A stretch of 27,189 nucleotides of DNA from a virus: the UHGV virus genome UHGV-0126599. One strand, given 5' to 3'. The notes under the pieces were generated by a model. It was not told the origin of the DNA. It saw nothing but the letters and a program-made list of their open reading frames with translations, and searched no databases. Made by a program: the position numbers and the translations under genes. Shown one piece after another: positions 22,989 to 27,189 of this stretch. Numbering within the stretch: the first letter of the stretch is position 1; every line of letters starts with the position of its first letter.

Positions 22989-23134
22989 TTCGCTGATACC
23001 TTTTGGTGGTTGAGCCTGTTCTCGTAGATACGGGCAGCCCAAGAGCGGTCAGCGTTACCACTGCCCTATCTCAAGCTCTACCCCGAAAGGCTCTTGGTTG
23101 ATATGCGCACGAGAATGCGCGGTTTACTGCGGAC

Positions 23135-23161
23135 ATAAAAAAGCCCGACCGAAGTCAGGCT
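23135..23161 (-). terminator. Intrinsic terminator downstream of the Rz/Rz1 lysis genes
   Basis: Minus strand AGCCTGAC-TTCG-GTCGGGCT followed by TTTTTTAT: 8-bp stem, UUCG tetraloop, U-run. Confidence 0.7.
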
Positions 23162-23180
23162 CTGTTATTTGGGTAACGAA

Positions 23181-23654
23181 TCATTTAAGACACTGCTCTT
23201 TGATGTAGTCCTGCATGCCGCGAATCATCTTGTCAGCGGTTGCGATTCCGTCCCGGTGATCGAAATAATTCCGTCGAGCGTCTGGAGTAAGTTCGGGGGC
23301 TCCTGCATCATCCACGCCGGTGGCGGAGGTGGCTTTTGACACTCCAGGGCAGGTTGCGGCGATGCGCAGCCGTTTAGCGCCAGAATCGACATCCCGACGC
23401 AAATCGTTAATGGTTTTTTTCGCATCGGACAATTCCTTCGTATATTTGGCATCCAGCGCAGCGACATCACGCTGGCGGGTTTGCATGTCGGTGATGGTGG
23501 CGTTTGCCAGGCTGACCTGTTCAACGGCTTTATCGCGCTGGTCTCTGTAAGTGATGGCGTTGTCGCGGTAGTGGTTTACGAAGAAAGCCAGTGCGCCGAT
23601 TAACGCCAGCACCAGCAACTGCAGCCAGTAACGCTTAACCAGTGCGCTAATCAT
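23181..23654 (-). CDS. Rz: Rz-like inner-membrane spanin
   Basis: Close resemblance to lambda Rz ([10 protein letters not shown]...[20 protein letters not shown]...YIKEQC); N-terminal TM helix. Confidence 0.9.
23225..23425 (-). CDS. Rz1: Rz1-like outer-membrane lipoprotein spanin, embedded in Rz in the +1 frame
   Basis: [20 protein letters not shown] lipoprotein signal then [22 protein letters not shown], matching lambda Rz1 architecture. Confidence 0.85.
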
Positions 23655-24100
23655 GACAGGAACAGAGCTCGCTCTGCCTCCCGCCGACGTGTCAGCCCAT
23701 TCAGCACCTTCCCACCAGCTTTATTCCAGCGCAGGAACTCATCGGCTGCACCAGCGTAATCTCCGGCGTTGAGTTTTCGCAGGAGAGTCGATGTCGACAA
23801 TGACCGCGCACCGAGGTTATACGTGAACGACACCAGGGCATCGAACTGGCCTTGTGTCAGCTTCACCCTGACAACTTTCAGCACGTCATTCTCATAACCA
23901 ACAAGCCCTGTTTTCAGAAGCCTGTCAGCGGTTTGCTGGTCGATAGTCATACCGCGCTTTACTGGCTTTCCGTCAACCGGATGGGTCCAGCCATAGCCGA
24001 TGGTCCACGGCGCATCTCCCGTTCCGGGGTCGGGGTAAGCAGTCAGCCGACAACCTTCAAATTTTTTTATCAGAGCAATTCCGTCAGGACTGGTTTGCAT
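23651..24100 (-). CDS. Phage lysozyme (GH24-type endolysin)
   Basis: [17 protein letters not shown]...WTIGYG...[12 protein letters not shown] motifs; ATG at 24100 preferred over the TTG at 24127. Confidence 0.85.
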
Positions 24101-24407
24101 CGTCAACTCCCGCCTTTTTTGCTGCAAGTTTTTTAATCAGATTGCCGATCGAATCGGTGCCGATGTATCCAATAAAGACGCTGGCTATGTAGGCGAGGTT
24201 GCTGCTCAGGCCGATAAAGTCCAGAAGGTCACGAACGAACCAGGCAATCATCGCGCACATCAGCGCATCAATTAGCGTTTTTGTTACCGCGCCGCCGTTA
24301 TAGCGACCACGCAGATACGCCATGATAAAAGCCAGCATTGCACCAATACCCTGCTCCTTGGCGGCAAGTAGCGCAGCGATGAAATCTTGTTTGTATGGCA
24401 TTTTCAT
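24084..24407 (-). CDS. Class I holin with dual-start motif (lambda S-like)
   Basis: [39 protein letters not shown]... is near-collinear with lambda S107/S105, including the Met-Lys-Met dual start; GGAGGTGA RBS. The ORF-track N-terminal extension is rejected. Confidence 0.9.
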
Positions 24408-24513
24408 AGGCCTCACCTCCGATTTTCCGGATGGTGCTGTGTGTGTTTGTAGGGGAAAGGCCGTCAGACTCTGATTGCTACATGGCATCTGAAAATGATA
24501 TCTGCGGCCTGCA

Positions 24514-24539
24514 ATAAAAAAGCCCACGGCGCGGTGGGC
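24514..24539 (-). terminator. Intrinsic terminator about 100 nt upstream of the holin start
   Basis: Minus strand GCCCAC-CGCGCC-GTGGGC followed by TTTTTTATT. Confidence 0.65.
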
Positions 24540-24794
24540 AATAGAGGGTAGTGCGTTGAGCTTTTGCTCTTATGGTCCTGGTAGGTATTTGGTGTGTGGT
24601 GACCGGTGCTGTGTTTTCCGGCATGTAAATGAACTACCCGTCGTCGCCATGGTGAGCCTTTACCTCACCATCTAGCTGATAAGTTAGCGCATCAGCCTGC
24701 GCATTCACCACAACGATAATTGCACTGCGCCTGTTTCGGTTAGCGTAACGGGATTAACCGGTCACCCCAATGCAATTATCTGTTGTGCAGATAC

Positions 24795-24824
24795 AAAAAA
24801 AGCCCCGAGCTATTAACTCAGGGC
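24795..24824 (-). terminator. Intrinsic terminator downstream of the late promoter (tR'-like)
   Basis: Minus strand GCCCTGAG-TTAATAG-CTCGGGGC followed by TTTTTTT, about 100 nt after the Q stop codon. Confidence 0.7.
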
Positions 24825-24858
24825 CATCGAATGAATGCACTACTCCATCATTGATTTC

Positions 24859-24887
24859 AGATTAAACAAAAATCGCCACTTTGTAAA
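24859..24887 (-). promoter_or_regulatory. Candidate Q-dependent late promoter (PR'-like)
   Basis: Minus strand TTTACA - 17 nt - TAATCT between the Q stop and the first terminator; hexamers are imperfect and the call is positional. Confidence 0.3.
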
Positions 24888-24929
24888 GTGTAGTTTTCTA
24901 GATAAATCCTATTTCATAGAAAACATTCA

Positions 24930-25694
24930 CTATCGCGTGACTTTGTTCAACATCTGGTTTGCGTACTCTTCCTGCTTGATGCACTCACCTACCAGACTTT
25001 CGAAAAAATCCTTGTAAGACCTGCGCCACGTGGTTTCAGGTATATCTATCACCGTTACGCAGATGTATTTACGGACGCTATCAGGTAGCAATCTGGCATA
25101 ACCACGCCCATTGCAGCGCGTACAGGTTTTATATGCAGGAACGCCGCGCTGTAGAATAGTTTTCTCTTTGTCTAATACTGTTCCTTTGCCATTGCACTGG
25201 CATGCGTTGGTCAGAGCACCCTTCCCTTTGCATTTGTGGCAAAGCACCTTAACCATCTCTCTTTTTTCGCTAAGGTGTGGCTGTCCGATATGCTTCATCG
25301 TCATTACTTCAGCTTCGACAAACTTATTTCCATTGCAGCAGTCGCACGTTCTGGTACTGGCGGCGCTCCGGGAGTAATCAGCAAAGGCGAAAGTTGCGAG
25401 AACTTGCATTACCTTTGGCTTAACATCGCTCTCAAGCTTGCGTAAGGCGGCAACCTTATCGCAGTGCTCAATTGCATATTTGGTCAGCAGGTCAATTGCT
25501 CGCTCGCGATCGTAATCGCTGATATCCATCTTACCGAGGAATGCACTGAACCCGAGATCAGCCCGGCTCTGTGTCATTCCGATCGCCGCCATAATGTCAG
25601 TGCCGGTTAATGAGTCAGATGCGGTTGCACGTGGAGCGTCGCTAATCATCGTTGACTTCGCGAAGTGGTATTTCACTGTGTTTTCGAGATTCAT
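24930..25694 (-). CDS. Late-gene antitermination protein Q
   Basis: 254 aa with Cys clusters (CDCCNGNKF..., CHKCKGKGALTNACQCNGKG, CTRCNGRG) typical of zinc-binding Q antiterminators; located just upstream of the lysis cassette; AGGAG RBS. Confidence 0.8.
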   Translation of the reverse strand: MNLENTVKYHFAKSTMISDAPRATASDSLTGTDIMAAIGMTQSRADLGFSAFLGKMDISDYDRERAIDLLTKYAIEHCDKVAALRKLESDVKPKVMQVLATFAFADYSRSAASTRTCDCCNGNKFVEAEVMTMKHIGQPHLSEKREMVKVLCHKCKGKGALTNACQCNGKGTVLDKEKTILQRGVPAYKTCTRCNGRGYARLLPDSVRKYICVTVIDIPETTWRRSYKDFFESLVGECIKQEEYANQMLNKVTR

Positions 25695-25837
25695 GCTTCT
25701 GCTCCTGATGGTTTATAGCGGCTGATGTAATTGCGTAAAATTCGGTAGTCCGTAGCAAATGAACCCGGGTGACGATAGATGCGTAACCGAGTCCATCGCA
25801 GACGAAGATGATCAGCAAAGTAGGATTCGAATGTCAT
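25691..25837 (-). CDS. ylcG: Small YlcG-like protein (48 aa)
   Basis: Hand-translated ORF, not in the track: [52 protein letters not shown] overlaps at both ends (rusA stop and Q start), same position as ylcG in DLP12-type prophages. Confidence 0.5.
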
Positions 25838-26196
25838 GCGGACTCCAGTTCAGTAATGGTCAGTTCAAGTCTGCCGCCTTTGACGACCGGCATTCTCTTC
25901 ACGCTGTAGTAGTCGACTTGTTGGTCATCGAGCCAGAACCCGGATTTCGTCAGGGCGTCGAACGCGGCCTTTTGCAGATTGTCCAGGTCGCGGCGGCGGC
26001 GATCCGGCATATGGCACTCAATGCGTATTTTCACGGGTGTAGCCAGGCCGATATCCAGCATTGAGTCTTTGATGATTCTGGCGACACTGTCGCGGTACGC
26101 CTGCCCCTCTGTGCTGATGTGCGTGCGCCCGCGATTATGGCGGTAGTAGCGGTTATTGCTCGGCGGCCAGGGCAATGTGATGTTGTAAGTATTCAT
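25834..26196 (-). CDS. rusA: RusA Holliday-junction resolvase
   Basis: 120 aa from ATG at 26196: [18 protein letters not shown]...[25 protein letters not shown] matches RusA, including the catalytic Asp region. Confidence 0.9.
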
Positions 26197-26483
26197 GCCT
26201 TGATTACCCCCTCTTTCAGCCAGATAACCTGCGTTCTCGCCATACCTTCCAGCGCGCATTCTTTAGCATACTCAGCATCGACAAAATGTGTACGGCGGTC
26301 GATCTCGTCGTGACAGGCAGAGCATGCAATGGTGGCAATAAGGTCTGGCGGTTTAATACCGGTGCCGCACAATCCAGCCAGCCGGATATGTGCCAGTACA
26401 GACGTTTCAGGATTGCCATTACATACGCCAGGGATTCTTACCTGGCATTCCCGACCACGCGCTGCTTTTCTCAAATCAGCCAT
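26193..26483 (-). CDS. ybcO: YbcO-like protein (DUF1364, putative nuclease)
   Basis: [34 protein letters not shown]...[11 protein letters not shown] closely resembles E. coli DLP12 YbcO as I recall it. Confidence 0.85.
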
Positions 26484-26646
26484 GTGACCTCCGCGCTTTC
26501 AGGCGATCCCATTTCACCTGGGTCAGTCGCGCGGTGTAGCCGAGCAGTGATGGGATTTCGGATGGCTTGAGTTCAGGCTTGCGCTTAGTGCGTGTCCGGA
26601 CCCGGTAGATTTCGTTGGTGATGATGCGAGCGAGAGGGCTAGCCAT
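26476..26646 (-). CDS. ninE: NinE-like small protein (56 aa)
   Basis: Hand-translated ORF, not in the track: [61 protein letters not shown]-coupled to ninB and overlapping the ybcO start. Confidence 0.55.
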   Translation of the reverse strand: MASPLARIITNEIYRVRTRTKRKPELKPSEIPSLLGYTARLTQVKWDRLKARRSHG

Positions 26647-27083
26647 TACGCAACCCTCCCGAAGTAATCACCTGAGTAGCGAACTTCACGGAGTTGCACG
26701 CCGTTTTGCACAGCAAATGCCTGGCTGTATTCGATGAGACTGGTCATGCGACGGATGCCCATCTTCGCAGTGCTTTCCCGGATGGCGCAGAACTCCCCTT
26801 CCAGACCCGGCACCACTTCACCAGGCTTACCGGTGGCAATGGCATGGCCTGAGACATACAGGACTTTCCATGAAGCGAGGTCGCGCGACTTGCCAGCCCA
26901 TTGCAATTGCTTCGCTGTATCGCCACAGAGAGCGTGGAAGAGGTCGTTTTGGGCGAGAGTGCGGTCAGCCTCAGAAAACTTCACCACGAGCGGCAGAGCG
27001 TCGTTAACGGGCAGCTTCCTGATGTAGTCGATGAGGTTATCGCGAACGCGTTCGTCGCGGAGGTAGAAAACAGGCTGTTTCAT
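26646..27083 (-). CDS. ninB: NinB recombination protein (Orf family)
   Basis: MKQPVFYLRDERVRDNLIDYIRKLPVNDALPLVVKFSEADRTLAQNDLFHALCGD...WKVLY resembles lambda NinB; ATG at 27083 with GGAGGT RBS; the ORF-track start at 27131 is rejected. Confidence 0.85.
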   Translation of the reverse strand: MKQPVFYLRDERVRDNLIDYIRKLPVNDALPLVVKFSEADRTLAQNDLFHALCGDTAKQLQWAGKSRDLASWKVLYVSGHAIATGKPGEVVPGLEGEFCAIRESTAKMGIRRMTSLIEYSQAFAVQNGVQLREVRYSGDYFGRVA

Positions 27084-27189
27084 ACGCCACCTCCGAGAGG
27101 TAACGCAGAATGCAGAAAATCGCAGGTGCATTTCTGCATCTGTGACAAGGTGAGAAGTTCATATTGTGGTCGCATTTAAGTCCCCTTAA

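Follow-up and report, generated by a model that had tools for sequence, protein, structure and literature searches.

The right end of UHGV-0126599, a 27,189-nucleotide (nt) stretch of viral DNA (the window, to which all coordinates refer unless another sequence is named), is the nin–Q–lysis region of a lambdoid prophage and encodes NinB, YbcO, RusA, Q, holin, lysozyme and Rz on the minus strand. The subject here is the interval between Q and the holin gene, all features of which lie on the same strand (Table 1), and within it a cloverleaf-shaped RNA element whose exchangeable third arm, the payload, is a copy of helix 11 of 16S ribosomal RNA (rRNA). The interval is bounded by Q (PF03589) and by the lysis cassette (holin PF05106, lysozyme, Rz) in the same orientation, which is the setting of a lambdoid late leader, and on balance it is probably the promoter-proximal leader of the prophage late (lysis and morphogenesis) operon, carrying modular non-coding RNA cargo. 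A first-pass annotation had placed a late promoter behind the Q stop codon, then a terminator, about 255 nt without a convincing open reading frame (ORF) and a second intrinsic terminator. Each of these was recovered: in alignment the promoter follows lambda pR' and its pause element base by base, both hairpins with their T runs were returned by the terminator scan, and the ORF table holds nothing of note in the spacer. A late promoter and two terminators are what one would expect of a lambdoid phage; the spacer itself is out of the ordinary.

The same annotation had offered two readings of the spacer, a structured RNA or the remnant of a lost cargo gene. The first is correct and the second is not, since the spacer is no lost protein gene and holds a conserved, covarying cloverleaf with an rRNA-like arm. 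Folded in isolation, the element forms a closing stem, hairpin 1, the payload arm and hairpin 2 in its minimum free energy (MFE) structure (−41.3 kcal/mol, z = −1.86); folding of the whole leader gave z = −5.09. The closing stem, P1, pairs UGUGGUG (24712-24706) with CACCACA (24601-24595) over 7 base pairs (bp) and is followed by the linker AAU. Hairpin 1, GCGCAGGCUGAUGCGC at 24702-24687, has a stem of 4-5 bp and the loop AGGCUGAU, while hairpin 2, GCCGGAAAACACAGCACCGGU at 24622-24602, has a 5-bp stem that adjoins P1. The fold has the four arms, the 7-bp stem and the stacked last arm of a transfer RNA (tRNA), with seven solidly covarying pairs.

A megablast search showed about 120 nt of the window (24714-24595) to be 91% identical to intergenic DNA of unrelated virulent phages, including Klebsiella Jedunavirus SBP and the Escherichia coli phages ZCEC13 and CWW26, where it is flanked by baseplate genes on the opposite strand and forms a separate convergent unit with its own terminator behind it. 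A shorter segment (24730-24684) matches dozens more phages of Escherichia, Klebsiella, Salmonella, Erwinia, Hafnia, Enterobacter and Yersinia. Placed side by side, the copies share a constant frame, 5' GUGGUGAAUGCGCAGGCUGAUGCGC and 3' AAGCCGGAGAUCAGCACCGGCCACCAC, around a variable middle, and IMG/VR scans anchored on the 5' half or the 3' half of this frame returned at least 120 contigs each. Because payload lengths of 27-230 nt make a single covariance model awkward, two half-site hidden Markov models combined with pairing were used in its place; the paired matches comprise 165 distinct elements in 217 loci, with 149 distinct payloads in that length range, or 175 when loci in bacterial genomes are included. 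The family is defined by GAAUGCGCAGGCUGAUGCGC, a payload and GCCGG-loop(CAGC)-CCGGY, closed by a complementary 7-bp stem; the window element follows this plan, its loop 2 being longer. The exact 20-mer GAAUGCGCAGGCUGAUGCGC occurs once in the window (24706-24687), against 0.01 copies expected by chance, and is found in at least 120 species-representative bacterial genomes of the Gamma-, Beta- and Alphaproteobacteria and a few others. Among the matches listed are the gammaproteobacterial genera Citrobacter, Klebsiella, Erwinia, Pantoea, Pseudomonas, Xanthomonas, Dyella, Stenotrophomonas and Halomonas, the betaproteobacterial genera Burkholderia, Pandoraea, Cupriavidus, Massilia, Comamonas and Thauera, and the alphaproteobacterial genera Rhizobium, Methylobacterium and Pelagibacterium. 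Across these hosts the scaffold is near-invariant and the third arm hypervariable, the loops staying constant while stems and payload drift. That the loops stay constant over this host range suggests that the tertiary fold is strict, that a host partner is conserved, or both; an invariant frame in so many hosts implies such a partner.

Support for the fold comes from an alignment of 98 distinct frames with the payload removed (A1). Standard pairs occupy 94.6% of cells, compared with 27-47% when the partner strand is slid by 1-3 columns, and 18 of the 24 pairs change on both sides, all 7 inner P1 pairs showing many double changes. The covariation score of 0.295 exceeds that of shuffled alignments (0.100) and was reached by none of 500 shuffles. 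Each scan had fixed one half of the frame; in the 3'-anchored set, where the closing stem and hairpin 1 were left free, these still pair. The closing stem varies freely (GUGGUG/CACCAC, GUUGGUG/CACCAAC, GCAGAUG/CAUCUGC, GUGGUCUG/CAGACCAC, GGAGAGG/CCUCUCC, UGAUAGUU/AACUAUCA), both hairpin stems covary, and two outer pairs beyond the 7-bp closing stem are paired in 52-68% of cases.

Loop 1 (AGGCUGAU) and loop 2 (AGAUCAGCA) are complementary over 5-6 nt (GCUGA/UCAGC). They are almost invariant, so that the A1 alignment says little about pairing between them. A targeted search for loop-1 variants found 12, 10 and 3 viral contigs, against at least 120 with the consensus. Where U22 of loop 1 has become C (GGCCGAU), A44 of loop 2 has become G (AUCGGC) in five of six distinct elements, and the C-to-U variant of loop 1 gives a U-A pair once and U.G twice. 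That the two hairpin loops kiss to make a tRNA-like elbow is supported but not proven. With this contact the cloverleaf would be built like a tRNA: the 7-bp stem would stand for the acceptor, hairpin 1 behind its short linker for the D arm, the payload for the anticodon arm and hairpin 2, stacked on the acceptor, for the T arm, the two outer loops being joined.

Covariance-model scanning of the spacer found no Rfam family at gathering score, and at a relaxed threshold the only meaningful match was to helix 11 of the small-subunit (SSU) rRNA model; the cloverleaf family thus appears to be uncurated. Positions 172-218 of the model align with 24683-24637 at 33.2 bits (E 1.2e-7, posterior 1.00), with all pairs canonical. 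The hairpin at 24648-24668 noticed earlier is real, as the tip of this 47-nt hairpin. The payload corresponds to positions 240-286 of E. coli 16S rRNA (GGGAUUAGCUAGUAGGUGGGGUAACGGCUCACCUAGGCGACGAUCCC, compared with CUUAUCAGCUAGAUGGUGAGGUAAAGGCUCACCAUGGCGACGACGGG in the phage), and over a block of 29 nt its identity with E. coli 16S 254-282 is 86-90%. Bases that are unpaired or in loops are kept (AGCUAG, GGUAA-GGC, GGCGACGA), and the helix is preserved through changes on both sides. This is not an rRNA gene, as only 47 nt match, the score lies below the gathering score (50) and the flanks are phage scaffold. It is also the sole payload, of some 150-175, that resembles a host stable RNA above a reversed-sequence control; mimicry of host stable RNAs as a general property of payloads was ruled out against 16S, 23S and 5S rRNA, RNase P RNA, the tmRNA region, 6S, 4.5S and three tRNAs, and an RNase P-like GGAGGAAAGUC in one payload is, by our own estimate, at chance level.

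A pattern scan for the helix-11 hairpin recovered 100 viral contigs, none resembling a real rRNA gene. About one quarter carry it in the cloverleaf and about three quarters (some 75) in a different, three-way junction of the form GCUUUGG-GCUGGC-AGACGGUU-[h11]-CGGCC-hairpin-GCCAGC-ACCAAAGC. Between the two scaffolds the helix AUGG..CCAU becomes UUGG..CCAA through A-U/U-A swaps, with identical loops and internal-loop bases, which is not the behavior of a decaying captured fragment. Loci of the second scaffold include L224 (7585-7624, minus strand), L221 and L006 (1501-1543), with about 75 others in IMG/VR. The element in L224 lies directly upstream of a Cys-rich ORF of about 210-233 amino acids (aa) with several CxxC motifs. 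In Yersinia phage vB_YenM_30.14 a related junction of this second kind is annotated inside a coding sequence, probably through a mis-called start.

Helix 11 holds a kink-turn. In the ribosome it is contacted by the primary assembly protein uS17 (PMC4604426; PMC3359968). By analogy, the simplest reading is that uS17, or some other ligand of helix 11, is what the phage RNA would bind; binding to uS17 itself is possible but, in our judgment, less likely than not.

Over the interval, E. coli ET729 and KCJ3K291 share 99.8-100% identity with the window. Comparison of related E. coli prophages places mosaic joints exactly at the module borders. Identical or near-identical cloverleaf copies occur at five loci (L130, L131, L228, L251, L278). 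E. coli 730V1 (L130) carries the lambda/HK629 version of the upstream stem and insert, followed by the identical cloverleaf, and in E. coli ES3 (L131) an identical first terminator, with everything downstream of it, stands behind a different Q gene and a lambda-type pR'. In E. coli EC2001 (L129) a real tRNA-Asn takes the place of the cloverleaf, its 3' end ...GTCCCGCCA abutting the tail AATACCTACC, where the window reads ...CACCACACACCA|AATACCTACC; the expectation of tRNA cargo at this site in relatives is thereby confirmed. Since the two swap at one junction, the slot of the cloverleaf is that of a tRNA, and so is its manner of exchange. Lambda (L315, NC_001416, ~44783-44905) keeps the long stem and insert right after tR', with a degenerate, payload-less vestige of the cloverleaf at ~44860-44905 (GUUGUGCUGAAU..ACCGGAAGCAGAACCGGAUCACCAAA). 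In lambda, too, a second hairpin resembling a terminator stands some 145 nt ahead of S (GGCAGGAGG..CCUCCUGCC UUUU).

Copies also occur in other settings. The commonest payload variant lies just downstream of cI on the same strand in the Stx2a_1447 phage (L008, 1517-1645) and in mEp460 (L004), and may there be expressed in the lysogen from the repressor transcript; in Stx2a-converting and mEp460-type copies tRNA-like fragments precede the cloverleaf. At five loci (L064, 8904-9173, minus strand; L010, L171, L174, L175) two cloverleaf units stand in tandem or nearby, interleaved with genuine tRNA genes. The scaffold as leader of one gene family, in the manner of a riboswitch, was rejected: downstream ORFs fall into many unrelated clusters, the largest with 19 of 146, and a leader of one family is excluded by downstream genes that are mutually unrelated.

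Table 1. Features of the Q-to-holin interval and its borders in UHGV-0126599.
Feature	Coordinates	Strand	Details and basis
Antiterminator Q gene (254 aa)	24930..25694	-	Stop codon 24932-24930; Pfam PF03589 Antiterm, E 7.9e-43; ORF table
Late promoter pR' (putative)	24847..24887	-	Position-for-position alignment with lambda; function by analogy
First intrinsic terminator, tR'	24795..24825	-	Stem 24825-24801 (11 pairs, 6 GC) and T7 run to 24795; terminator scan
Stem A (17-19 bp)	24711..24785	-	CAACAGAUAAUUGCAUUGG (24785-24767) paired with CAGUGCAAUUAUCGUUG (24727-24711); MFE of whole leader; inverted repeat I3, 92%
Cloverleaf RNA (118 nt)	24595..24712	-	MFE four-arm fold; family alignment A1
Payload arm, copy of 16S rRNA helix 11 (E. 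coli 240-286)	24637..24683	-	Includes hairpin 24648-24668; relaxed Rfam scan
3' tail (55 nt)	24540..24594	-	Small hairpin GAGCAAAAGCUC, then single-stranded ...CACUACCCUCUAUU; junction comparison with relatives
Second intrinsic terminator	24516..24539	-	Stem 24539-24522 (6 pairs, 5 GC) and T6 at 24521-24516; terminator scan
Holin messenger RNA leader	24408..24515	-	CAUUUUCAGAUGCC (24497-24484) complementary to S start region; inverted repeat I2, 14 nt, 86%
Lambda-family holin S, dual start (MKM...)	24084..24407	-	Met1 24407, Met3 24401; Pfam PF05106, E 9.4e-30; sequence reading

Upstream of the cloverleaf, the putative pR' consists of a −35 element TTTACA (24887-24882), a 17-nt spacer, a −10 element TAATCT (24864-24859), GAAATC and then AATGATGG, with a predicted start at 24852 and a sigma70-pause-like element, AATGAT, at 24852-24847. 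Its counterpart in the alignment is lambda TTGACT-17-TAAATT-TGACTC-AACGATGGG / AACGATGG; lambda 44587, the A of AACGAT, is the start of 6S RNA, and that hexamer is the sigma70-dependent pause element used by Q. The window sequence accordingly reads as a sigma70 promoter whose initial transcribed region holds a −10-like pause element, an assignment made from sequence. A simple promoter scan of the window did not list pR' among its sites. The position of tR' fits a terminator shortly downstream of the promoter, and its override by Q is proposed by analogy with lambda. It was named tR' because AUCUGCACAACAG follows the terminator in the window and lambda alike (both read ATCTGCACAACAGGTAAGAGC / AUCUGCACAACAG after it), and the same hairpin stands behind the other Q/pR' type, that of ES3. 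Without Q, an RNA of about 57 nt ending at tR' is predicted by analogy. The interval had been proposed as the site of a 6S-like transcript; it is the Q-to-holin late leader, but the predicted short RNA ends at the first terminator and hence outside the spacer. Terminator-like sites in 23000-27189 number 5, compared with 4.4 in shuffles, so the case for both terminators rests on their strength, strand, position and conservation in relatives.

Stem A encloses a 39-nt insert (insert 1, 24766-24728), and its last 2 nt double as cloverleaf P1. Its sequence is compensatory with respect to lambda/HK629 (GGUAAGAGCAUUG/CAGUGCUCUUAUC), with many further covarying versions; a stem of differing yet complementary sequence stands upstream of most family members, and in many the enclosed insert ends in a genuine-looking T arm, e.g., GGUUCGAnUCC. 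The perfect 10-bp inverted repeat singled out in the first-pass annotation (24598-24607 and 24759-24768) is present as the core of a 25-nt pair that is 76% complementary, but lacks meaning: about 0.16 perfect 10-mer repeats are expected by chance in 581 nt on a rough estimate, and a functional long-range helix was rejected as being near chance, absent in relatives with another insert and in competition with the conserved fold. The repeat exists because insert 1 (24728-24766) begins GGUGACCGGU, which reads like the 5' strand of the closing stem (GGUGA) fused directly to a strand of hairpin 2 (CCGG). The start of insert 1 may be the scar of a collapsed second scaffold, or may pair alternatively with the real hairpin 2 and P1 3' strands.

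Downstream of the cloverleaf, the 3' tail is common to relatives that have a genuine tRNA-Asn in its place, and the second terminator is identical in EC2001, 730V1 and ES3. The tail, with its small hairpin, C/U-rich single strand and terminator, is likely the Hfq-type part of the RNA. Tails that follow the cloverleaf in the window and at loci L010, L075, L079 and L094 form a loose family, ...CCUACCAGGGACC..., a small hairpin, ...ACCCUCAU... and a terminator; their C/U-rich stretch before the terminator looks like an anti-Shine-Dalgarno-like seed. Identity of the tail with PasA or PasC was ruled out, as these are antisense to late genes (Table S6 of the Pas small RNA study). The terminator has the position of those of STnc100 and PasD, small RNAs (sRNAs) from the same region of other lambdoid prophages, and by this analogy is most readily taken for the 3' end of an RNA unit of the PasD/STnc100 kind.

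At the borders of the interval, the MKM start of the window holin is the lambda dual-start motif. The leader segment CAUUUUCAGAUGCC (24484-24497, minus strand) pairs over 14 nt, at 86%, with GGCCUAUGAAAAUG (24399-24412), which spans both holin start codons; such a long-range structure could control an S107/S105-type dual start, as sdi does in lambda. The Q protein has two Antiterm (PF03589) stretches, four CxxC-type repeats in residues ~117-200 and a weak, sub-threshold match to the DnaJ-type CxxCxGxG zinc finger (E 8.8e-5; 23 bits against a cutoff of 32.7).

The data presented above have led us to consider a scheme, modeled on lambda in its first steps, whereby RNA polymerase would start at pR' near 24852 and, without Q, stop at tR' to leave the short RNA, while Q-modified polymerase would pass tR' and the second terminator into S, R and Rz. 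Polymerase leaking past tR' without Q would halt at the second terminator. The late transcript would also be processed, stem A with its 17-19 bp being of a size suited to RNase III, and the tRNA-shaped module would possibly be cut by RNase P, RNase E or other tRNA-processing or 3'-trimming enzymes. A stable RNA made up of cloverleaf, tail and terminator, in the layout of the Hfq-bound PasD and STnc100, would then accumulate, in which the scaffold would act as a stable, processable display frame and the payload in trans; the helix-11 payload would most plausibly bind uS17, the ribosomal ligand of helix 11. In its full form, the proposal is a natural RNA display cassette, a tRNA-shaped frame with an elbow formed by the conserved kiss of its loops, which host tRNA-processing enzymes would excise and stabilize and through which phages of many Proteobacteria would express interchangeable payloads; the helix-11 version would be a trans-acting decoy or recruiter for uS17, with which the phage would interfere with or exploit 30S assembly in lytic growth, a case of phage-encoded rRNA mimicry. 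We regard this full form as speculative and unlikely. The parts with their positions, the fold, the family with its covariation, module exchange and host range, and the identity of the helix-11 arm are well supported, and the overall picture, scheme included, is in our judgment somewhat more probable than not.

Several observations weigh against the overall picture. No detector takes the cloverleaf for a tRNA: ARAGORN reported 0 genes, and RF00005 gave no match at gathering score or at E up to 10. The loops AGGCUGAU/AGAUCAGCA do not have the T/D consensus, there is no anticodon arm, and the third arm is hypervariable; an encoded CCA end as a rule was rejected, N-CCA following the stem in 15 of 151 elements, about twice chance. 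Given the loops and this CCA frequency, recognition by tRNA enzymes is conjecture. Some loop variants are uncompensated (C21 to A in three cases, G23 to U in three, and the variant of L208), and loop 2 of the window itself, AAAACACAGCA, is longer and atypical, with four possible kissing pairs only. The relation to STnc100/PasD rests on layout and short shared strings, and RF02076 misses the window element. Ribosomal uS17 also contacts helices 7, 9, 20 and 21 (PMC3359968), so that helix 11 alone may bind it poorly. Finally, the transcript ends, processing and Q dependence on which the scheme draws are ones that we infer for the window prophage.

Among the alternatives, the best supported places the working part of the RNA in its 3' tail, as an Hfq-type pairing sRNA for which the cloverleaf would be a protective or processing 5' domain and the payload would have no function of its own. 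The predicted seed of PasD (UGUGAG) lies in the tail just before the terminator and not in the structured 5' domain, PasD and STnc100 are both associated with Hfq, and the window tail, in which a single-stranded stretch rich in C and U runs up to a terminator ending in U residues, is kept where a tRNA replaces the cloverleaf. Left unexplained is a helix-11 payload that stays nearly unchanged in about 100 viral contigs and two scaffolds, with helix-preserving swaps; many family members, moreover, have ORFs downstream in place of a tail and terminator. We hold this explanation to be possible, with the odds against it.

A second alternative treats the spacer as decaying junk, a degenerate tRNA array with a captured rRNA fragment, the terminators then serving as a double lock on the late genes. 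Real tRNAs do occur at this site in relatives, lambda has only a vestigial scaffold, insert 1 reads like a degraded T arm, and the count of terminator-like sites is not above chance. Decay is nonetheless improbable for an element whose exact scaffold 20-mer is conserved across classes of Proteobacteria, whose stems covary abundantly, whose loop variants are rare and partly compensated, and whose ~91% identical copy in unrelated virulent phages forms a unit of its own with its own terminator; evidence for purifying selection on the element is already strong. Slightly less probable still is a cis-acting role, whether as a put-like processive antiterminator acting past the second terminator or as a regulator of holin translation: the cloverleaf does lie upstream of that terminator and of S, and in several family members an ORF follows the element within a few tens of nt, so that it lies in a 5' leader, but the downstream genes belong to many unrelated families, the Jedunavirus-type phages carry the element as a separate convergent unit with its own terminator, and antitermination is already supplied by Q. 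The remaining alternative, a small protein encoded by the 26-codon ORF at 24650-24570 that the first-pass annotation had pointed out, is barely credible, since the ORF exists but is rejected as a meaningful gene, its start codon not being conserved (the ATG falls within the 3' strand of helix 11, CACCAUGG, and reads AAG in the second scaffold type), its length and frame differ in the Jedunavirus copy, an upstream Shine-Dalgarno sequence is absent, and the region is conserved in the manner of paired RNA.

In lambdoid phages, the gap between Q and holin is commonly regarded as a leader with optional cargo such as tRNAs, toxins and sRNAs. Part of it belongs to an RNA family that has sharp limits and is missing from Rfam, its frame near-invariant from Enterobacteria to Burkholderia, Xanthomonas and Rhizobium; this frame carries a freely exchangeable arm, and the family has a structural link to STnc100 and PasD, poorly understood sRNAs of pathogenic E. 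coli and Salmonella. Binding of uS17 by the helix-11 payload, if true, would open a new route by which phages act on ribosome biogenesis, and the frame may prove useful as a natural scaffold for RNA expression in bacteria. Neither the scaffold-plus-payload principle nor the helix-11 copy is described in the searched literature, whose coverage is incomplete; the same search gave no relevant description of a phage rRNA mimic or of a tRNA-like hypervariable prophage RNA, and a prior description is possible.

The leader as a whole compares most directly with the pR'-qut-tR' leader of lambda, whose promoter, pause-like element at +1 to +6 and terminator align with those of the window. Lambda makes a short constitutive RNA from pR', with Q-dependent read-through, and StxS of Stx phages is a similar system; lambda 6S RNA is 194 nt long, in contrast to the ~57 nt predicted for the window.

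The complete RNA unit most resembles STnc100 (RF02076) and PasD1/PasD2 (= EcOnc13), Hfq-associated prophage sRNAs of Salmonella, EPEC and EHEC, which likewise lie on the late-gene strand in the Q (PF03589)-to-holin region of lambdoid prophages; PasD has been linked with STnc100 and both placed by Q (PF03589) and holin (Zhu, Shabalina and Storz, bioRxiv 2026). Pas sRNAs are Hfq-dependent, and PasD1 and PasD2 have high read counts in Table S2 (Pearl Mizrahi et al., PMC8550237). Judged by inspection of the fold, the RF02076 consensus and the PasD1 sequence, these RNAs share with the window a closing stem ...UGGUG, AAU, hairpin 1, a variable middle, hairpin 2 abutting CACCA..., a tail and a terminator. 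The RF02076 consensus reads GcaUGGUG, AAU, a hairpin, variable hairpins, CCGGGAGGCACCCGG followed directly by CACCAugC, a tail and a terminator, and PasD1 of EPEC E2348/69 has the same plan (CGCAUGGUGAAU...), with the predicted seed UGUGAG in the tail. Membership of the cloverleaf in STnc100 was rejected, the model giving no match in 24380-24960 at gathering score (47 bits) or at E up to 10; it does match another site in L007 (2838-3043, 48 bits). Since RF02076 does not detect the cloverleaf, the family is filed as a sister group that shares the layout and not as a member. The hairpin loops of STnc100/PasD differ and lack the GGCUGAU/AUCAGC pair. The PasD unit begins right at a pR'-like promoter, so that its terminator doubles as tR', whereas the window unit follows a separate short tR' and ends at the second terminator. 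A hypervariable arm, a tRNA shape and an rRNA-like payload are not described for STnc100/PasD in the searched literature.

Phage tRNA cargo, such as the tRNA-Asn of EC2001, shares with the cloverleaf the same slot, four arms, a 7-bp closing stem and a stacked last hairpin; the cloverleaf differs in having no anticodon arm, no T/D loop consensus and no regular CCA, and is not detected as a tRNA. In Stx phages the tRNA cargo ileZ-argN-argO lies between Q and the lysis or toxin genes. Other tRNA-like frames, those of the bacterial Y RNA YrlA, of mascRNA and of engineered tRNA scaffolds, have genuine T and D loops. The resemblance here lies in a frame that can protect an RNA from nucleases and define its ends while it displays a further module; unlike these, the elbow of the cloverleaf would be formed by Watson-Crick loop-loop pairing, and there is no link to Ro/Rsr. 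For the payload, no uS17-binding mimic of the helix-11 kind was found in the searched literature, within its incomplete coverage, and the nearest parallel is offered by the leaders of ribosomal-protein operons (S8, S15 and L1 sites). These mimic rRNA, usually loosely, and act in cis on host messenger RNAs in autoregulation. Both they and the payload are short RNAs outside the ribosome that reproduce a protein-binding helix of rRNA, but the element described here is carried by a phage and presents a near-exact 47-nt helix 11 in a trans-type RNA.

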